A stretch of 33,255 nt of DNA from a virus (Duplodnaviria; Heunggongvirae; Uroviricota; Caudoviricetes): IMG/VR virus record IMGVR_UViG_2737471834_000009, one strand, 5' to 3'. This document shows positions 5,963-31,756 of this stretch, piece after piece. A program made the translations under genes and the position numbers. How positions within the stretch are numbered: position 1 is the stretch's first letter; each line of letters starts with the position of its first letter. The notes under the pieces are model-generated. The model was not told where the DNA came from and made no database searches. It worked only from the letters and a program-made list of their open reading frames with translations.

Positions 5963-6265
5963 ATGAAGATTATCTCAGTTAAAACACTCAGGGATTTTTG
6001 GGCGGAGAATCCTGATGCAGAACAACCGCTAAGGGCATGGGTGGATGAGGCGGCAAAAGCTGACTGGAAAAGCCCAGCAGACATTAAGGCACAATACCGA
6101 ACGGCCAGTATATTGAAAAACCGGCGCGTGGTATTCAACATAAAAGGTAATCATTACCGTTTAATTGTTGCAATTGCGTATCAGCGAGGATGGGTATTTG
6201 TTAAATTCATCGGAAACCACAAGGAATACGATGCTATTGATGCTGATACCATCGAACTGGAGTAA
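5963..6265 (+). CDS. HigB-like toxin (RelE/ParE superfamily mRNA interferase)
   Basis: 100-aa product MKIISVKTLRDFWAENPDAEQ...VFNIKGNHYRLIVAIAYQ...FIGNHKEYD resembles HigB family proteins from memory; toxin gene precedes the antitoxin as in higBA. Confidence 0.75.
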   Translation: MKIISVKTLRDFWAENPDAEQPLRAWVDEAAKADWKSPADIKAQYRTASILKNRRVVFNIKGNHYRLIVAIAYQRGWVFVKFIGNHKEYDAIDADTIELE

Positions 6266-6267
6266 GC

Positions 6268-6627
6268 ATGAACATCAAACCTATTCGTACAGAGCAAGAT
6301 TATGAAGCCGCGTTGCGTGCTGTTGAACCCATGTTCGACAATGAGCCCGAAATTGACACGCCTGAGGGGGATTTTTTTGAGGTGATGTGTTTGCTAATAG
6401 AGGAATATGAAAAAAAACATTATCCCATTGAGCCACCATCCCCAATTGAAGCTATAAGATTTCGCATGGAACAGCAGGGGCTGACTGTGAAAGATTTGGA
6501 ACCCGCAATTGGGAAAAAAAATCGGGTTTATGAGGTGTTGAATGGTACCAGAAGCCTTACGTTACCAATGATTCGCCGTCTTCATAATCAATTTGGTATC
6601 CCCCTGGAAAGCCTGGTTGGATTATAA
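6268..6627 (+). CDS. HigA-like antitoxin, HTH XRE family
   Basis: 119-aa product with C-terminal helix-turn-helix (LTVKDLEPAIGKKNRVYEVLNGTRSLTLPMIRRLHNQFGIP); starts 3 nt after the toxin stop. Confidence 0.75.
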   Translation: MNIKPIRTEQDYEAALRAVEPMFDNEPEIDTPEGDFFEVMCLLIEEYEKKHYPIEPPSPIEAIRFRMEQQGLTVKDLEPAIGKKNRVYEVLNGTRSLTLPMIRRLHNQFGIPLESLVGL

Positions 6628-10727: not shown

Positions 10728-10731
10728 GTGC

Positions 10732-11088
10732 ATGGAAATAAAACCAGAAGATGAGTTAAGCAATATCGTTTTATTTCCGGTAAAAGAGGATGACCCTCGT
10801 AATCAGGTTAATTTTCTTTATGAGCCATCGGAAAGACCATATTGCCATCACGCTTCTGTCCGGGTTGACGAAAAAGAGCGTCAGGTCCGCTGTAAAATCT
10901 GCGGTGCAGTTGTGGAGCCATTTGACTGGATGCTCTCTGTGGCGAAAAGAGAAACCAGACTGGCAGATGATGTAAGGCTATTGCGCCAGGAGGAACAGGA
11001 AAGACGGAAAAATATAGAAAAGTTAATTCAGATTGAGCGTAACGCGAAAGCGCGGATACGCAGGGTGACAAAATCCAGAACTGAATAA
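10732..11088 (+). CDS. hypothetical protein (CHH...CxxC motif, basic C-terminus)
   Basis: 118-aa ORF MEIKPEDELSNIVLFPV... preceded by the junction element AAAGGAGAGG. Confidence 0.55.
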   Translation: MEIKPEDELSNIVLFPVKEDDPRNQVNFLYEPSERPYCHHASVRVDEKERQVRCKICGAVVEPFDWMLSVAKRETRLADDVRLLRQEEQERRKNIEKLIQIERNAKARIRRVTKSRTE

Positions 11089-12429: not shown

Positions 12430-13242
12430 ATGACCACTATTACCAAAGAGCGACTGCAATGGCTGGCTAACATTTCTGGCCGTGATGACATTGACGATAT
12501 AGACGGCGGTGAGATTCGTGAACAGGCACGAATTGCTCTGGCAGCGCTGGAAGTCGAGCCGATAGGTTTCCGTTGCAGGCGCAATGATAACCTTGGTGAT
12601 TGGAGTTACGTATATCATCGAGAGCCAGATGATTTTGAGCGCAAACATTTAGTGATAGAGGGCATTTACGCCGCCCCTCCAGCGCCAGTAGTACCGGAAG
12701 AAAAACCAATGCCTAATCCTCTTAGCATGTACGCGGTTGATGCTGTTGCCGCTATTGCAGAGGTGAGAGGCTGGAACGCCTGCCGCGCCGCCATGCTTCA
12801 GTCCGGAAACTTTCGGGAAAACAAGAATTCGTCAACCAATAATTTTCGGGAAATCGCGGAAACGTCAACCAACTCTCCGGTAATTCCTGATGAGGTGTTG
12901 TCCGCAATCCGGGAGGTTGCCAGGATTCGCGCCGATTTCGATGATTTTGACGGTGACAGGCGAGGTATCGGTGATTGTCTGGATGAGGCCGAGCAAGAGC
13001 TTATCGTTACCATTAACAAATATGCCAGTCAGTTGGCAGTAGAGCCGGTAGTACCTGATGACGTTCTGGAACAGACAGTAGCGTCGCCCGCGCCAGGTAA
13101 CCAGGTTAGCGAATTAACAATGTGGGTTAAGCGTCTGGCTCACTCCTTAAAGTACGCCAATAGCTTAAGCAGCTTGCCTGATAAGGCGATGGAGTATCTG
13201 AATCAGAATGGGCTGATAAGTGTGGAGGATGTTTTACGATGA
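12430..13242 (+). CDS. hypothetical acidic protein (possibly Ea22-like; unassigned)
   Basis: 270-aa ORF, acidic with D/E-rich segments, RBS AAGGAG before the ATG. Confidence 0.6.
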   Translation: MTTITKERLQWLANISGRDDIDDIDGGEIREQARIALAALEVEPIGFRCRRNDNLGDWSYVYHREPDDFERKHLVIEGIYAAPPAPVVPEEKPMPNPLSMYAVDAVAAIAEVRGWNACRAAMLQSGNFRENKNSSTNNFREIAETSTNSPVIPDEVLSAIREVARIRADFDDFDGDRRGIGDCLDEAEQELIVTINKYASQLAVEPVVPDDVLEQTVASPAPGNQVSELTMWVKRLAHSLKYANSLSSLPDKAMEYLNQNGLISVEDVLR

Positions 13243-13322: not shown

Positions 13323-13330
13323 CAAACAAA

Positions 13331-13358
13331 AACCCCGGATTGATGGTCCGGGGTTTTT
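13331..13358 (+). terminator. intrinsic terminator (CCCCGGA-loop-TCCGGGG followed by T5)
   Basis: Perfect 7-bp stem with a T-run; A-run upstream, so it may act in both directions. Confidence 0.7.
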
Positions 13359-13639
13359 GAAGGAAACAAAACAGAAACAACAATTGCCGTTACCTGTTGT
13401 TACCATGGCAAGTAAACGTATCTCAGGCGAGCGCATTGCGCCGTTCTGACGCAGATAAATTAGCCTGGATAGAAGGTGCTGGCAATAAAAAATAGCGTTT
13501 TCTTATCGGTGTCGGTAAGATTGCTGCGGGTGCTTGAGGCTGTCTGCCTCAGGCATGCCACTGTAAGGCAGACAGAGAAAAGCCCCAGTTAACATTATGC
13601 GTCCGGCAAGACGCTTAACATTAATCTGAGGCTCAATCT

Positions 13640-13852
13640 ATGAACGGCAAATCTAGGTTAGCCTCTTACGCGCCGAAAGGCAAGGAGAAGCAGGCTATGA
13701 AGCAGCAAAAGGCGATGTTAGTCGCCCTGATCGTCATCTGTATTACCGTCATTGTGACGGCACTGGTAACGAGGAAAGACCTCTGCGAGGTACGAATCCG
13801 AACCGGCCAGACGGAGGTCACTGTCTTCACAGCTTACGAACCTGAGGAGTAA
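13640..13852 (+). CDS. Mok-like reading frame (in-frame N-terminal extension of Hok)
   Basis: 70-aa ORF containing the hok frame, as in chromosomal mok/hok loci. Confidence 0.55.
   Translation: MNGKSRLASYAPKGKEKQAMKQQKAMLVALIVICITVIVTALVTRKDLCEVRIRTGQTEVTVFTAYEPEE
13697..13852 (+). CDS. hok: Hok/Gef family type I toxin
   Basis: 51-aa product MKQQKAMLVALIVICITVIVTALVTRKDLCEVRIRTGQTEVTVFTAYEPEE is near-identical to remembered HokD/RelF; mRNA leader has the tac-like hairpin GCTTGAGGCTGTCTGCCTCAGG. Confidence 0.85.
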   Translation: MKQQKAMLVALIVICITVIVTALVTRKDLCEVRIRTGQTEVTVFTAYEPEE

Positions 13853-13995
13853 GAGACCAGGCGGGGGAGAAATCCCTCGCCACCTCTGATGTGTCAGGCA
13901 TCCTCAACGCACCCGCACTTAACCCGCTTCGGCGTTTTTTCCGTTGATTAACTCTAGTTATTAGAGAACCGAACTTTTATTGATGGGGCAGGGAG

Positions 13996-14388
13996 ATGAA
14001 GAAACTTGTTTTAGTCGCAGGTGTAATGATTGCAACAGTAATGTTGGGAGGGTGTGCAGCAAAGGTCGATCCAGCGTTGAAAGCAGAAGCAATGAAGCCA
14101 CTAACATGTAATGATGAAAAGCAATGTGACTTTTATTGGAAACGAGCGCAATTCTGGTTGGCTAATAATTCCTCATGGAAAATTCAAACGGCGACAGACA
14201 CGCTAATTTCCACTTATAATCCCTCTCCAAATAGTCCATTCCTCGCTTATCAAGTGAGTAAAATGCCAAATGAAGATGGATCCTCAAGAATTTTCATCAA
14301 GCCTTTTTGCGATAATATGTTTGGCTGTCAACCAAACCCCTATCAGGCAGTTGTTTCCTTTAAAAACTTCGTTAAAACAGGGCAGTAG
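13996..14388 (+). CDS. putative lipoprotein (moron)
   Basis: Signal peptide with lipobox MLGGC, four further cysteines; followed by an intrinsic terminator. Confidence 0.7.
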   Translation: MKKLVLVAGVMIATVMLGGCAAKVDPALKAEAMKPLTCNDEKQCDFYWKRAQFWLANNSSWKIQTATDTLISTYNPSPNSPFLAYQVSKMPNEDGSSRIFIKPFCDNMFGCQPNPYQAVVSFKNFVKTGQ

Positions 14389-14586
14389 TGTATAGCTTGG
14401 ACGATAAATTATTAGTGAAAACGCCGTAAACCCTCACCCAATGTGGACTAAGCCTATCAAACATGACTGTGATGATTAGTCCGTAGTTGTTGCCTATGAA
14501 ATCTGGATTGAGTCAGGGTTTAATCCAATAATTATTCTATCGTTCCTTTACAAGTCCGGTATATTACTTTCAGTTTGTTTTAGCAT

Positions 14587-14612
14587 ACCCGCTTCGGCGG
14601 GTTTTGTTTTTT
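14587..14612 (+). terminator. intrinsic terminator (ACCCGC-TTCG-GCGGGT plus T-run)
   Basis: Perfect 6-bp stem, TTCG loop, TTTTGTTTTTT. Confidence 0.7.
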
Positions 14613-14684
14613 CCTGGCATTCTGGTTTACAATTCGCACGCCAGCCTGAACAACTGGCACCTGCTGCGCCAGCAGAGACAACCG

Positions 14685-14963
14685 ATGGCGCACGATACCA
14701 AATTACACAATTCTGATGATTCTGCCGTCTTTGCCAGCAGGTGCGGACGGCGTTTTCATGCATTCAAATCGGACTGGTTCCAGCATCCACCATGCACTGA
14801 AGAGCAGGCTGAATGGATAATTCAGTGTTACCGCAGGCGCGGATACGAGGTTAAAAAAGCCCTTAGCCTCGACTACCGTCACTGGATAATCTCAGTCAGA
14901 TTGCCTTACTCCGAACGCCCACCGCGTCCGTCCCGCACATTCCAGCAACGCATCTGGAGGTAA
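14685..14963 (+). CDS. hypothetical protein
   Basis: 92-aa ORF from the first ATG downstream of the terminator; stop is 1 nt before the next gene. Confidence 0.45.
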   Translation: MAHDTKLHNSDDSAVFASRCGRRFHAFKSDWFQHPPCTEEQAEWIIQCYRRRGYEVKKALSLDYRHWIISVRLPYSERPPRPSRTFQQRIWR

Positions 14964-14964
14964 C

Positions 14965-16023
14965 GTGCGGGTATTACTTCGACCTGTTCTGGTACCGGAA
15001 CTCGGGCTGGTGATCGTTAAGCCGGGCCGTGAATCCATGCCGGTATTCCACAATACCCGGTTACTGGTGGAGCCGGAACCGAAAAGCATGCGTAATCTGC
15101 CGTCCGGGGTCGTTCCTGCCGCTCGCCAGCCGCTGGTGGAAGACAAAACATTGCTGCCGTTTTTCAGTAACGCACGGGTGATTCGTGCTGCTGGTGGTGC
15201 TGGTGCATTGTCTGACTGGCTGTTGCGCCATATTAAATCCTGCCAGTGGCCACACGGCGATTATCATCACAGCGAAACCGTCATTCACCGTTATGGTACC
15301 GGCGCAATGGTGTTGTGCTGGCACTGCGACAACCAGCTGCGTGACCAGACATCAGAATCACTCGAGCAACTTGCTCATCAAAACTTGTCAGCATGGATGA
15401 TTGACGTCATCCGTCACGCAATCAGCGGTACGCAGGAGAGGGAGTTATCGCTGGCTGAATTATCCTGGTGGGCGGTCTGCAATCAGGTGGCTGATGCGCT
15501 TCCGGAGTCTGTATTGTGTCGTTCACTGGGATTACCGGTGGAAAAAATCCGCTCCGTATACCGTGAGAGTGACATCGTACCGGGAGAACAGACTGCCACC
15601 AGCATACTGAAGCAGCGCACAAAAAATATTGCGCTGCCACTTCACGTCCACCAGCAACAGCCCCCACTCCAGGAAAAGACGTTAGTAAGCATCGCCGTTG
15701 ATCCGGAGTCTCCGGCTCAGTATCTCCAGCGCCAGAAACCACAACGGGAAGAGATGCCTGTATACACGCGCTGGGTAAAAACGCAGAAATGCATGACGTG
15801 CGGTAATCAGGCAGATGATCCGCATCACATCATTGGTCATGGACTGGGAGGGATGGGAACAAAGGCTGATGATTTGTTTGTTATTCCGCTGTGCCGTAAA
15901 TGTCATAACGAACTGCACGCCGGGGTAAAAGATTTTGAAGAAAAACACGGCAGCCAGCTGTTGTTGCTGATTCGTTTTTTAATGCACGCGAGAAATTCGG
16001 GTGTCCTGAAGTGGAAAGCATGA
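14965..16023 (+). CDS. DUF968/YdfU-like protein with C-terminal HNH-like zinc-finger motif
   Basis: 352-aa ORF, GTG start with RBS GGAGG; C-terminus CMTCGNQADDPHHIIGHG...CRKCHNELH; same size and position as Qin prophage ydfU next to Q. Confidence 0.7.
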   Translation: MRVLLRPVLVPELGLVIVKPGRESMPVFHNTRLLVEPEPKSMRNLPSGVVPAARQPLVEDKTLLPFFSNARVIRAAGGAGALSDWLLRHIKSCQWPHGDYHHSETVIHRYGTGAMVLCWHCDNQLRDQTSESLEQLAHQNLSAWMIDVIRHAISGTQERELSLAELSWWAVCNQVADALPESVLCRSLGLPVEKIRSVYRESDIVPGEQTATSILKQRTKNIALPLHVHQQQPPLQEKTLVSIAVDPESPAQYLQRQKPQREEMPVYTRWVKTQKCMTCGNQADDPHHIIGHGLGGMGTKADDLFVIPLCRKCHNELHAGVKDFEEKHGSQLLLLIRFLMHARNSGVLKWKA

Positions 16024-17285: not shown

Positions 17286-17361
17286 GGCCCTTTAGCTCAG
17301 TGGTGAGAGCGAGCGACTCATAATCGCCAGGTCGCTGGTTCAAATCCAGCAAGGGCCACCA
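17286..17361 (+). tRNA. tRNA, anticodon CAU (ileX/ileZ-like tRNA-Ile2; tRNA-Met not excluded)
   Basis: Manual cloverleaf: acceptor GGCCCTT/AAGGGCC, anticodon loop CTCATAA, T-loop TTCAAAT, CCA encoded; close to remembered ileX. Confidence 0.8.
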
Positions 17362-17362
17362 A

Positions 17363-17439
17363 CCGCCACTAGCTCATCAGGAAAGAGCGTCAACCCTTTA
17401 AGTTGAGTGTGCGAGGTTCGAGTCCCCGGTGGCGGTCCA
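17363..17439 (+). tRNA. atypical tRNA, anticodon loop CCTTTAA (anticodon UUU, Lys-like, with C at position 33)
   Basis: Manual cloverleaf: acceptor CCGCCAC/GTGGCGG (C1-G72), D-loop with GG, T-loop TTCGAGT, CCA encoded; isotype uncertain. Confidence 0.55.
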
Positions 17440-17441
17440 GT

Positions 17442-17517
<76 letters not shown>

Positions 17518-17520
17518 TAT

Positions 17521-17595
<75 letters not shown>

Positions 17596-28475: not shown

Positions 28476-28497
28476 AACCGCTTCGGCGGTTTTTTTT
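28476..28497 (+). terminator. intrinsic terminator-like hairpin before the tape measure gene
   Basis: AACCGC-TTCG-GCGGTT followed by T7. Confidence 0.55.
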
Positions 28498-28507
28498 CGT
28501 CCGGAGA

Positions 28508-31500
28508 ATGAGAATGGCGACATTACGTGAACTGATTATTAAAATTTCGGCAAATTCCCGGTCATTCCAGTCAGAGATCGCCCGGGCTTCACGTATGGGG
28601 CAGGATTACTACCGCACCATGCAGAACGGAGGCCGACAGTCTGCTGCTGCATCCCGTGAAATGCGGCGGGCGCTGGCAGAAGTGACGGATCAGATAAATA
28701 CGGCTAAATCTTCGGCACTGAGTATGGCGGGAGCATTTGCCGGGGTTTTTGCCACCGGGCATCTGATTTCCCTTGCCGATGAGTGGAATTCAGTCAATGC
28801 CCGTCTGAAACAGGCGACACAATCCAGTGATGATTTTCAGGCATCACAGCGTGAATTAATGGCAATCAGCCAGAGAACGGGGACGGCGTTTTCTGATAAC
28901 GCCAGCCTTTTTGCCCGCTCTGCAGCTTCCATGCGGGAGTATGGCTACAGTTCTGAGGAGGTCCTGAAAGTCACTGAGGCGATTTCCACGGGGCTGAAAT
29001 TATCCGGTGCCAGTACAGCAGAAGCCAGTTCGGTGATCACGCAGTTCAGTCAGGCTCTGGCGCAGGGAGTGCTGCGCGGTGAAGAGTTTAACGCTGTGAA
29101 TGAGAACGGCGATCGTGTTATTCGTGCTCTGGCTGCGGGAATGGGAGTTGCCCGTAAGGATCTAAAGGCCATGGCGGATAACGGAAAGTTGACCGCCGAT
29201 AAGGTTGTTCCTGCACTGATTAGTCAGCTTGGGGCATTACGTGATGAATATGCGGCAATGCCTGATACGGTTTCATCCTCTGCAACCAAAGTTGAAAACG
29301 CCTTTATGGCCTGGGTTGGTGGTGCGAACGAGGCAAGCGGAGTGACGAAGACGCTCTCCGGTGTGCTGAATGGTATTGCAGGCAATATTGACACCGTGGC
29401 AACCGCTGCCGGTGCTCTGGTTGCCGTCGGGGTAGCCCGATATTTTGGCAATATGGCGTCGTCTGCTGGATCTGCAACTGCCGGATTAATTACTGCAGCC
29501 AGAAACGAAGTGGCTCTTGCTGAAGCGCAACTTCGGGGGACACAGATAGCAACCGCCAGGGCGCGTGCGGCGGTTTATCGTGCGCAACAGGCGGTTGTTG
29601 CTGCTCGCGGTACCGAAAGGCAGGCCGCAGCAGAAGCGAAGCTGACAGCTGCCCAGGCGTCACTTACCCGTAATATTGCGGCCAGAACAGCGGCACAGAC
29701 AACGCTGAATACTGTCACGTCAGTGGGGAGTCGTCTGTTAAGTGGTGCGCTGGGGTTGGTTGGTGGTGTGCCGGGACTCGTCATGCTGGGGGCGACGGCC
29801 TGGTACACGATGTATCAGAATCAGGAGCAGGCCAGAGAATCTGCACGCCAGTATGCCGCAACAATCGACGAAATTCGCCAGAAAACGTCGGCAATGTCGC
29901 TTCCTGAAGCGTCAGATAATGAGGAAAAGACGCGGCAGGCACTTGATGAGCAAAACAGGTTAATTGACGAGCAGAAAAGTAAGATTAAATCCTTACAGGA
30001 AAAAATTGCTGGCTATCAGTATGTGCTGGCAAACCCGGGCTGGACAACCGATAACGGTTTTATGATTAACCACATGACGTCGGTAAAAACTGTCACAGAA
30101 GGGCTTGCAGAAGCAACAAATCAACTGGCAGTTGAACAGTCCCGTCTCACACAAATGCAGGGCAAAGCGCAATCCATTCAGGATGTGCTTGCCGGGCTGG
30201 AGGAGCGACGGGTGGCGTTGATCCGTCAACAGGCCGCGGAACAAAACAAAGCGTATCAGTCCCTGTTGATCATGAATGGGCAGCATACCGAGTTTAATCG
30301 CCTTCTCGGGCTCGGTAATGAATTACTTCAGCAGCGACAGGGGCTGGTGAATGTACCGTTACGTCTGCCACAGGCAACCCTGGATGATAAACAGCAGGAC
30401 GCACTGAAAAAAAGCCAGCAGGCGCTGGAGTTGTCCCGTCTCAAAGGCGAGGCCAGAGAACGCGTGCGTCTCGGATATGCTGCTGATGATCTTGGCTTTG
30501 TCGGCGACAAATATCAGACTGCACGCCAGGAATTCATCAGTACAGGGATGGAGACCTGGCGCAATAATGAGGCGAATAAGCCGAAGAGAAAAGGGCCAAA
30601 ATCGGAAGCTGAAAAAGCAGAAGATGTTTACAACAGGCTGATTAAACAGCAGAAAGAACAGCTTGCACTGGCAGGACAGAATACCGAACTGGCGAAAATG
30701 AAATACCAGGTCAGCCAGGGTGAGCTGACCACCCTTTCGTCTGCACAGAAGCAACTTTTGCTACAGAATGCGGCGCTGATTGACCAGAAAAATATCCGGC
30801 AACAGCTTGCCGCATATGAAGCTAATCTGGCCGATGAGAACGCCAGCCGTCGGTCATCGTATCGGGAAGAACTCACGGGTTACGGTCAGGGTACGCGGAT
30901 GCGGGAGCGCATGCAGGAGGCGTTACGTATTCGTGAAGCGTTTTTGCAAAAAAATCAGGATTTACAAAGACAGTATCAGTCCGGGGATATTACGGAGGAA
31001 CTGTTCCGTCAGGAGAAGGCGCTGAACGCGCAGTACCTGAGCGAGCGTCTGAAGGACAACGCTGAATTTTATGCAGCGCTGGATCAACAGCGCAGTGACT
31101 GGATGGCGGGAATGCGTGAAGGTCTGGCGAACTGGGCTGACAACGCGTCGGATTATGCCGGTCAGATGGCGTCTGCTGCAGGGACTGCAATGGACGGTCT
31201 GGTGAATAATATAACCGAAGCCCTGTCAGGTAACCTTGTGGCATGGCGTGACTGGGCGGCGGCTGTCCTGAAGGAGATCTCCGGAATTCTGATGAGTGTC
31301 GCCATTGTGAACGGTCTGAAATCACTGGCCGGGTCAATGTCTGGTATGGGCGGACTGGCCGGTGGTATTGGTAACTGGTTGTCCGGCGCACTGAAGAATG
31401 CCAGAGGTGGCGTTTACGCATCCGCAGGTCTGAGCGCTTACAGTAACAGCATTGTCGATACACCAACGTATTTCGCTTTTGCGAAAGGGATCGGCCTGAT

Positions 31501-31756
31501 GGGCGAGGCCGGGCCGGAGGCCATCATGCCGCTGGCACGGACGGCTGACGGCTCTCTGGGAGTACGTGTTGCAGGTAATGCCGGCAGTACGGGAGGATTT
31601 GTCTATTCTCCGGTGTACAATATCGCCATACAGAACGATGGCAGCAGTGGGCAGATTGGTCCGGAGGCAGCGAGTGGTCTGGTTGGTCTGATTGACCAGC
31701 GTGTGCGTGCAGTAATGCTGTCCATGCGACGTGACGGGGGGATGCTGAGTGACTGA
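28508..31756 (+). CDS. tail tape measure protein
   Basis: 1082-aa, alanine/glutamine-rich and largely helical; position after the G/T chaperone genes. Confidence 0.9.
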   Translation: MRMATLRELIIKISANSRSFQSEIARASRMGQDYYRTMQNGGRQSAAASREMRRALAEVTDQINTAKSSALSMAGAFAGVFATGHLISLADEWNSVNARLKQATQSSDDFQASQRELMAISQRTGTAFSDNASLFARSAASMREYGYSSEEVLKVTEAISTGLKLSGASTAEASSVITQFSQALAQGVLRGEEFNAVNENGDRVIRALAAGMGVARKDLKAMADNGKLTADKVVPALISQLGALRDEYAAMPDTVSSSATKVENAFMAWVGGANEASGVTKTLSGVLNGIAGNIDTVATAAGALVAVGVARYFGNMASSAGSATAGLITAARNEVALAEAQLRGTQIATARARAAVYRAQQAVVAARGTERQAAAEAKLTAAQASLTRNIAARTAAQTTLNTVTSVGSRLLSGALGLVGGVPGLVMLGATAWYTMYQNQEQARESARQYAATIDEIRQKTSAMSLPEASDNEEKTRQALDEQNRLIDEQKSKIKSLQEKIAGYQYVLANPGWTTDNGFMINHMTSVKTVTEGLAEATNQLAVEQSRLTQMQGKAQSIQDVLAGLEERRVALIRQQAAEQNKAYQSLLIMNGQHTEFNRLLGLGNELLQQRQGLVNVPLRLPQATLDDKQQDALKKSQQALELSRLKGEARERVRLGYAADDLGFVGDKYQTARQEFISTGMETWRNNEANKPKRKGPKSEAEKAEDVYNRLIKQQKEQLALAGQNTELAKMKYQVSQGELTTLSSAQKQLLLQNAALIDQKNIRQQLAAYEANLADENASRRSSYREELTGYGQGTRMRERMQEALRIREAFLQKNQDLQRQYQSGDITEELFRQEKALNAQYLSERLKDNAEFYAALDQQRSDWMAGMREGLANWADNASDYAGQMASAAGTAMDGLVNNITEALSGNLVAWRDWAAAVLKEISGILMSVAIVNGLKSLAGSMSGMGGLAGGIGNWLSGALKNARGGVYASAGLSAYSNSIVDTPTYFAFAKGIGLMGEAGPEAIMPLARTADGSLGVRVAGNAGSTGGFVYSPVYNIAIQNDGSSGQIGPEAASGLVGLIDQRVRAVMLSMRRDGGMLSD

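Follow-up and report, generated by a model that had tools for sequence, protein, structure and literature searches.

Morons, as defined by Juhala and Hendrix, are extra genes between otherwise adjacent phage genes, with a deviant composition and a downstream terminator; HK97 gp15, an inner-membrane protein encoded in the tail operon, is one of them (PMC3594210). Cor (phages phi80, N15, HK022 and T1; phrog_1119) is a small phage lipoprotein that is carried as a moron and acts in FhuA-dependent exclusion. Llp of phage T5 and Rtp45 of phage Rtp, ~6-kDa peptides with disulfide(s) whose genes lie beside the receptor-binding protein gene of lytic phages, are lipoproteins of the inner leaflet of the outer membrane (OM); Llp acts on FhuA (PMC9586334) and Rtp45 on LptDE (PMC12685063), in both cases from the periplasmic face. 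Lambda Bor/Iss and TraT are prophage- or plasmid-borne OM lipoproteins made in the carrier state. Here, we describe a gene for a lipoprotein of 130 amino acids (aa) in the IMG/VR record IMGVR_UViG_2737471834_000009, a stretch of 33,255 nt (hereafter, the window) that represents an Escherichia coli prophage of the lambda/Qin-like type. It is a fairly ordinary phage accessory gene, that is, a moron-encoded lipoprotein from a large uncharacterised family.

The locus shares with HK97 gp15 and the lambdoid morons the position between otherwise adjacent genes, the deviant composition and the downstream terminator, and some homologues of the gene also lie in tail operons. It differs from this type in that the insert has no detectable promoter of its own and splits the terminator of the upstream toxin gene, and in that the product is a lipoprotein. 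The mature protein (111 aa, about 12.6 kDa, isoelectric point 8.6) is predicted to reside, as do Llp and Rtp45, in the inner leaflet of the OM, but it comprises an alpha/beta domain with two predicted disulfides, and its gene is located in the nin region. The whole of Cor, with 74 aa, is shorter than this mature part; homologues of the present gene nevertheless share the tail-tip neighbourhood of Cor, beside N15-like J genes. Bor/Iss and TraT are lipoproteins of the same kind, with a different size and cysteine pattern.

Insertion of a single gene into the hok terminator

The status of the lipoprotein gene as a moron is strongly supported, because the element is present or absent at one junction, has a low guanine-cytosine (GC) content and a downstream terminator, and because homologues of the gene occupy many non-homologous accessory positions. 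Three of the four classical features of a moron were found here (presence/absence polymorphism, deviant composition and downstream terminator), and only a promoter of its own was not detected. The element comprises the following features.

13996-14388, plus strand: lipoprotein gene, 130 aa (phrog_16082, E-value 2.6e-84)
13996-14055, plus strand: signal peptide and lipobox by a PS51257-type pattern, residues 1-20, L-G-G-C with Cys20, Ala at +2
13922-13940, plus strand: left copy of the direct repeat ACCCGCTTCGGCG followed by T6, a crippled hok terminator whose 3' half-stem is gone (3-bp stem, -3.1 kcal/mol, z-score -0.75)
13935-14586, plus strand: inserted low-GC segment, the moron proper, missing in empty-site genomes (GC 0.39)
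14389-14586, plus strand: AT-rich 3' untranslated stretch of 198 nt, partly deleted in some copies (fold z-score -0.43)
14587-14612, plus strand: intact intrinsic terminator with the right repeat copy, hairpin 14587-14602 followed by a T-run (-12.7 kcal/mol, z-score -3.7)

Alignment with empty-site genomes, together with repeat searches, defined the insertion as 665 bp, i.e. positions 13935-14586 plus one copy of a 13-bp direct repeat. The repeat occurs at 13922-13934 and 14587-14599, spaced by 665 bp (chance expectation, 0.03 matches), and corresponds to the 5' half-stem and loop of the hok terminator. The right terminator copy is identical to the hok terminator of empty-site genomes. In terms of composition, the insert has a GC content of 39%, compared to 50% for the window, which places it among the lowest 1.4% of 650-bp windows, and GC at third codon positions (GC3) is 0.37 in the lipoprotein gene versus ~0.55 in the downstream ORF92 (an open reading frame, ORF, of 92 aa), DUF968 and RusA genes. 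An Rfam search of the insert, including its 3' untranslated stretch, found no RNA family, and the fold of that stretch was unremarkable.

A preliminary description of this DNA had proposed a terminator-bounded moron at 13941-14963 that encodes the lipoprotein and the 92-aa protein. Its terminator after the lipoprotein gene was confirmed, as the hairpin and T-run listed above. The upstream boundary, on the other hand, is the truncated copy, and the extent has to be corrected to the 665-bp insert. The moron holds one gene, with a working terminator at one end and the remnant of one at the other.

In the scenario that we propose, the single-gene moron would have entered the 3' half of a hokD-type hok terminator in a Qin/lambda-like prophage, with breakpoints inside the 13-bp sequence that is now present twice. 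We also considered a target-site duplication of the insertion sequence (IS) type and set it aside by reasoning: a 13-bp repeat inside a common GC-rich UUCG hairpin better suits recombination at terminator microhomology. We must also note a one-mismatch copy of the terminator stem (AACCGCTTCGGCG) elsewhere in the window, at 28476-28488 on the plus strand, ~20 nt upstream of the tape-measure ORF (28508-31756).

An exchangeable slot in E. coli prophages

Our survey covered 5426 complete E. coli genomes, of which 4765 matched the region at least in part and only 250 showed the full arrangement. The insert itself was present in 255 genomes, always on the chromosome, with every inspected copy at the hok junction; 222 of the 255 carried it with at least 99% identity. 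It was also found in two phage genome records. The carriers include enteroaggregative E. coli (EAEC) 042, which matches positions 13600-15000 of the window at 99.4% identity, avian pathogenic E. coli (APEC) and clinical isolates.

Among 60 matching IMG/VR loci, 56 contained the E. coli form of the gene. Since the left junction was exactly that of the window in 51 of these copies and near-identical in four more (the remaining one, L024, follows unrelated sequence), the data point to one insertion event and later spread along with the flanking hok and DUF968 modules. Two derived variants were seen, one with IS1203 between hok and the lipoprotein gene (strain 503440) and the other with a short deletion in the 3' untranslated stretch.

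Comparison of loci L002, L003, L004 and L018 showed what else occupies this position. In the empty site (e.g. strain 123636, L002), hokD, the terminator, ORF92 and DUF968 follow each other with nothing between, and related empty-site E. coli prophages continue in the order hok, ORF92, DUF968, RusA and Q. In strain TK3889, the slot is filled by a different, unannotated AT-rich insert of ~290 bp. In the Qin prophage of K-12, the alternative cargo between the hok terminator and ORF92 is rem, which has been shown to encode a DicA antirepressor (PMC10448788). Rem is an unrelated cytoplasmic regulator and, unlike the present insert, sits after an intact hok terminator. The slot at 13922-14685, between the hok terminator and ORF92, is a site of exchangeable cargo.

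Backbone genes on both sides of the slot

From left to right, the order in the window is hok/sok, the 130-aa ORF, the terminator, ORF92, a DUF968/HNH-like gene, RusA and the antiterminator Q. The flanking features are as follows.

13528-13702, plus strand: hok mRNA leader and sok antisense region (Rfam RF01794 sok, 111.7 bits against a gathering score of 59, E-value 4.7e-26)
13640-13852, plus strand: mok/hok reading frame, whose last 51 codons (13697-13852) are the Hok toxin (Pfam HOK_GEF, 78.4 bits; annotated as hokD in E. coli 042)
13909-13917, plus strand: fbi-like 3' element of the hok mRNA, a 9-nt exact complement of the 5' tac-like element at 13525-13533, inside a longer duplex
14685-14963, plus strand: ORF92, conserved backbone gene beside hokD in empty-site, rem-bearing and other variants (phrog_1212, function unknown)
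14965-16023, plus strand: DUF968/HNH-like nuclease gene (YdfU-like) of the backbone (Pfam DUF968, E-value 2.8e-63; HNHc_6, E-value 1.4e-7), with RusA and Q (Phage_antiter_Q) downstream

The upstream neighbour is a complete hok/sok type I toxin-antitoxin module, in which the Hok/Gef ORF, the sok/leader RNA and the tac-fbi pairing were all found. The insertion spared the 5'-3' complementarity of the tac/fbi type in the hok mRNA, which sits just 5' of the breakpoint, and destroyed the terminator right after it. Further upstream, between a 270-aa ORF (12430-13242) and the hok locus, we observed a minus-strand hairpin at 13327-13359, with a strong 13-bp stem and a T-run, which may be a bidirectional terminator.

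The 92-aa ORF reported at 14685-14963 is a real gene, under purifying selection relative to the K-12 copy (ratio of nonsynonymous to synonymous substitution rates, dN/dS, 0.166). Both small ORFs are adjacent and annotated as 'hypothetical protein' in the NCBI record of E. coli 042 (WP_000737636 for the lipoprotein and WP_014639230 for ORF92), so that a moron of two genes between two terminators could be imagined. This arrangement is refuted by the empty-site, rem-bearing and other variants, all of which retain ORF92 directly upstream of DUF968, and we regard it as practically untenable. ORF92 also has the composition of the backbone (GC 0.52, GC3 0.56) and lies beyond the terminator of the moron, whose upstream counterpart is crippled. 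Because empty-site genomes carry it directly after hokD, ORF92 is outside the moron; it belongs to the backbone of the nin-like region and is unrelated to the lipoprotein gene. The proposal of a moron in the preliminary description thus stands for the lipoprotein gene and fails for the 92-aa ORF.

ORF92 was directly 5' of the DUF968/HNH-like gene in every variant, with a gap of 1-2 nt. In the window, its stop codon is 1 nt before the GTG of the latter gene and a GGAGG motif lies within its 3' end; the two genes are probably a translationally coupled pair. No match for ORF92 was found in Pfam, NCBIfam, PADLOC or by a sequence search of the PDB. Downstream of Q, the plus strand carries a tight cluster of four tRNA genes at 17286-17595 (Met-CAT, Lys-TTT, Thr-TGT and Gly-TCC); their equivalent in E. 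coli 042 consists of tRNA-Ile and tRNA-Arg.

Sequence features and predicted fold of the lipoprotein

The reported ORF, with its LGGC lipobox and four further cysteines, was confirmed at 13996-14388. We applied the lipobox rule of PROSITE PS51257, i.e. a basic N-terminus, a hydrophobic core and [LVI][ASTVI][GAS]C with the Cys at positions 15-35. The N-terminus MKKLVLVAGVMIATVMLGGC satisfies a rule of this type: the match is VMIATVMLGGC, ending in Cys20, and the basic residues are K2 and K3. All 12 close homologues and 33 of the 37 distant ones showed the same type of pattern, and the +2 residue was never Asp. Export of the product and its lipidation at Cys20 are therefore supported at the level of sequence patterns. 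In enterobacteria, residue +2 decides, by the Lol sorting rule, to which membrane a lipoprotein is directed. Since this residue is Ala, the protein is predicted to localise to the OM.

The further cysteines are Cys38, Cys44, Cys105 and Cys111. Over 37 diverse family members, the invariant residues were Cys20, Cys38, Cys44, Trp48, Thr73, Cys105 and Cys111. The four invariant cysteines of the mature domain lead us to predict two disulfides, which would suit a periplasmic domain. The preliminary description drew its comparison with outer-surface lipoproteins; to our knowledge, the exclusion lipoproteins described to date work from the periplasmic face.

The AlphaFold2 model was confident (mean predicted local distance difference test, pLDDT, 84, with values >90 through most of the mature domain) and consists of a helix, a four-stranded antiparallel sheet and a C-terminal helix. 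We predict from this model that the mature domain has a generic helix-grip alpha/beta fold. Flpp3 (DUF3568, Francisella) and the N-terminal helix-grip domain of BamC resemble it at the fold level only, with 11-13% sequence identity and no Pfam match, and KA1 and START domains scored equally. The protein did not fall within the DUF3568/Flpp3 sequence profile. Neither Llp nor Rtp45 was among the 50-60 PDB fold matches listed for it.

Searches by sequence gave little for this protein. Pfam returned nothing at E-values up to 0.1 save a sub-threshold C4 match, and there was no match above the gathering score to the Lambda_Bor, TraT or Rz1 lipoprotein families. No NCBIfam or PADLOC-DB v2 model matched it, and PADLOC-DB v2 offered no defence model for the lipoprotein, ORF92 or the DUF968 protein. 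In PHROGs, only families of unknown function were recovered for the lipoprotein and ORF92, and a PDB sequence search found no match for the lipoprotein. No publication was found that deals with WP_000737636 or with either of the two phage records containing the gene.

A large family at many phage positions

A word-indexed homologue search returned close relatives only (66-85% identity), in Enterobacter, Pantoea, Phytobacter and Yersinia, and a scan of GTDB species representatives with the close-homologue alignment found no relative. An exhaustive profile search identified 1141 representatives of 50%-identity clusters at E ≤1e-3, 532 of them at E ≤1e-10; most of these members are lipoproteins of 125-135 residues. 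The 90%-identity protein cluster that holds the lipoprotein also includes many 70-aa Hok proteins, which looks like an artefact of database clustering and not like biology.

Homologues occupied about eight other accessory positions in temperate phages. Among the tail genes, they lay between the tape-measure gene (H) and M (Enterobacter), between M and L, between I and J (Pantoea), or between K and I, where an unrelated second lipoprotein gene is the tandem neighbour. Elsewhere, the gene was preceded by parDE, with sieB nearby, in a Yersinia immunity region; overlapped by 4 bp with the stop codon of the gene for a CI-like repressor in an integrase/VapE element; belonged to an early region that includes ERF/YqaJ; or lay between tail genes and the integrase. 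The gene behaves as a self-sufficient accessory gene, and several of these sites typically hold genes that the prophage expresses. In two IMG/VR prophages (L079, 5001-5784, and L080, 4905-5679), the gene runs into the start of another lipoprotein gene that is unrelated to it (phrog_890 'lipoprotein' or phrog_914), and the two form a two-lipoprotein cassette upstream of tail gene I.

These data bear on the idea that the protein is a lysogenic-conversion factor for the benefit of the host, raising serum or complement resistance, envelope robustness or adhesion, as an OM lipoprotein like Bor/Iss or TraT. Its predicted location and moron status would be the same as for a protein acting in exclusion, the carriers include the EAEC, APEC and clinical strains named above, and positions next to a repressor, toxin-antitoxin modules or an integrase suggest expression in the lysogen. 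Nevertheless, many copies lie within late-expressed tail operons, and homologues were also found in plant-associated Pantoea and environmental metagenomes, settings in which serum resistance has no relevance. Together with the absence of Pfam similarity to Lambda_Bor or TraT, this makes a host-benefit function unlikely in our view.

The architecture of other family members leads in a different direction. Eleven of the 37 diverse members have a C-terminal PDZ domain (P0034, P0101, P0103, P0141, P0165 and others); PDZ-bearing P0165 (L016) is encoded in an ordinary chromosomal neighbourhood, and in P0117 the lipoprotein domain is duplicated in tandem. Such PDZ-fused, chromosomal and duplicated relatives suggest a cellular origin of the family and a conserved periplasmic partner. 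It could be envisaged that the protein binds or inhibits a conserved periplasmic or envelope machine (e.g. a peptidoglycan hydrolase, a protease or PDZ-protease partner, BAM or Lpt) in the service of the phage's own cycle, through lysis timing, protection from muralytic enzymes or prevention of progeny loss on debris, and not through exclusion by the lysogen. Against this role, the similarity in fold is generic, with KA1, START and other domains scoring the same, and the positions behind the repressor gene and parDE point to expression in the lysogen. We consider such a role improbable, to about the same degree as a benefit for the host.

Proposed expression together with hok

No sigma-70-like promoter of at least 9/12 matches was found in 13853-13995 (best, 7/12) by a consensus scan that may miss weak or activator-dependent promoters. 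As the upstream terminator copy is crippled and no own promoter is visible, we infer that the lipoprotein gene is co-transcribed with hok. In this model, hok transcripts would no longer stop at 13940 and would continue through the lipoprotein gene to the duplicated terminator. The extended, constitutive hok mRNA would provide expression of the lipoprotein in lysogens, and N-antiterminated early-right transcription would add to it after induction.

Similar arrangements were observed elsewhere in the family. A terminator-like hairpin directly 3' of the gene, combined with the absence of a promoter of its own, was found in L005, L008 and L010, among them the tail-operon copies of Enterobacter and Pantoea. 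In the Yersinia copy, the sole plus-strand promoter-like site is upstream of parDE, which precedes the gene.

One might also suppose that the gene is a silent passenger, carried in E. coli without expression or function. The lack of a visible promoter, the separation of some copies from hok by IS1203 and the existence of frameshifted or partial copies would fit this view. However, the gene is under purifying selection (dN/dS 0.106 relative to the Enterobacter copy), its lipobox and all four cysteines are conserved, it is nearly invariant in the 222 genomes, which represent many backgrounds, and it is present in deposited phage genome records. We regard a silent passenger as very unlikely.

Possible function in phage exclusion

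The preliminary description proposed exclusion or lysogenic conversion, which may reasonably be supposed. By analogy with the systems outlined above, we favour, tentatively and with less than even confidence, a prophage-expressed OM lipoprotein that acts on an envelope component, most likely in exclusion. A signal peptide of the Sec/Lsp type would direct export and lipidation at Cys20, followed by Lol sorting to the OM, where the alpha/beta domain of 111 residues with its two predicted disulfides would face the periplasm. There, the lipoprotein may bind an OM or envelope component and thereby keep incoming phages from adsorbing or from delivering their DNA, or progeny from adsorbing again. Llp and Rtp45, acting on FhuA and LptDE, respectively, provide the precedents.

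The relationship to Cor deserves particular attention. The J proteins encoded next to Pantoea-type copies resemble N15 gp21, HK225 J and phi80 J in their last 299 residues (45-65% identity), and FhuA is the receptor used by N15 and phi80. It could be assumed that the present lipoprotein takes the place of Cor in phages whose J is N15-like. We rejected this possibility because Pantoea prophage L008 carries both, the lipoprotein gene between I and J (6001-6384) and a true Cor (10728-10952, 74 aa, phrog_1119, E-value 2e-25) downstream of the N15-like J, which is followed by phrog_557 and phrog_425 genes. If the lipoprotein excludes phages, its target is probably other than that of Cor. Homology to Cor was rejected as well: the PHROG match (E-value 0.007) covered residues 1-44 only, i.e. 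the signal peptide, and hhalign against true Cor gave a probability of 10.8%.

Apart from the Cor results, several further observations weigh against a function in exclusion. No homology to any exclusion protein was found, whether to Cor by PHROGs and hhalign or in PADLOC, Pfam and NCBIfam, and Llp and Rtp45 are about half as large as this protein. In addition, the large family shows good conservation and has chromosomal PDZ-fused members, which suggests that a conserved envelope partner fits better than a fast-evolving receptor mask. The genes further upstream differ among the E. coli carriers (QueH, DUF4406, DUF551 and others); the moron is carried by varied phage backbones in E. coli and is not tied to one receptor-binding protein. 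Finally, the proposed co-transcription with hok is a reading of the DNA sequence.

A more elaborate version of the exclusion reading, which we consider doubtful as a whole, can be formulated as follows. The protein would be the E. coli member of a large undescribed family of disulfide-stabilised OM lipoproteins (>1,100 clusters at 50% identity, no Pfam model), and this family would serve temperate phages as a portable envelope module that they exchange among their tail-tip, immunity and nin regions. With a fold unrelated to Cor, Llp and Rtp45, the protein would approach a conserved envelope machine or receptor from the periplasm and block it, and would be expressed here from a bicistronic hok-lipoprotein transcript.

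If the protein has no such function, it is one more hypothetical prophage gene, and the gain consists of the corrected moron boundary and of ORF92 now being counted among the backbone genes. If our model is true, the insertion into the hok terminator would mean that an accessory gene borrows the constitutive promoter of a toxin-antitoxin module, a theme that would recur with parDE in Yersinia and with the repressor gene in another element. If the lipoprotein does act in phage exclusion, the small number of exclusion lipoproteins understood so far would gain a new and widespread structural family. This would provide a handle on the envelope component that is targeted and would bear on the host range of therapeutic phages in pathogenic E. 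coli, given that ~5% of complete genomes carry the gene.

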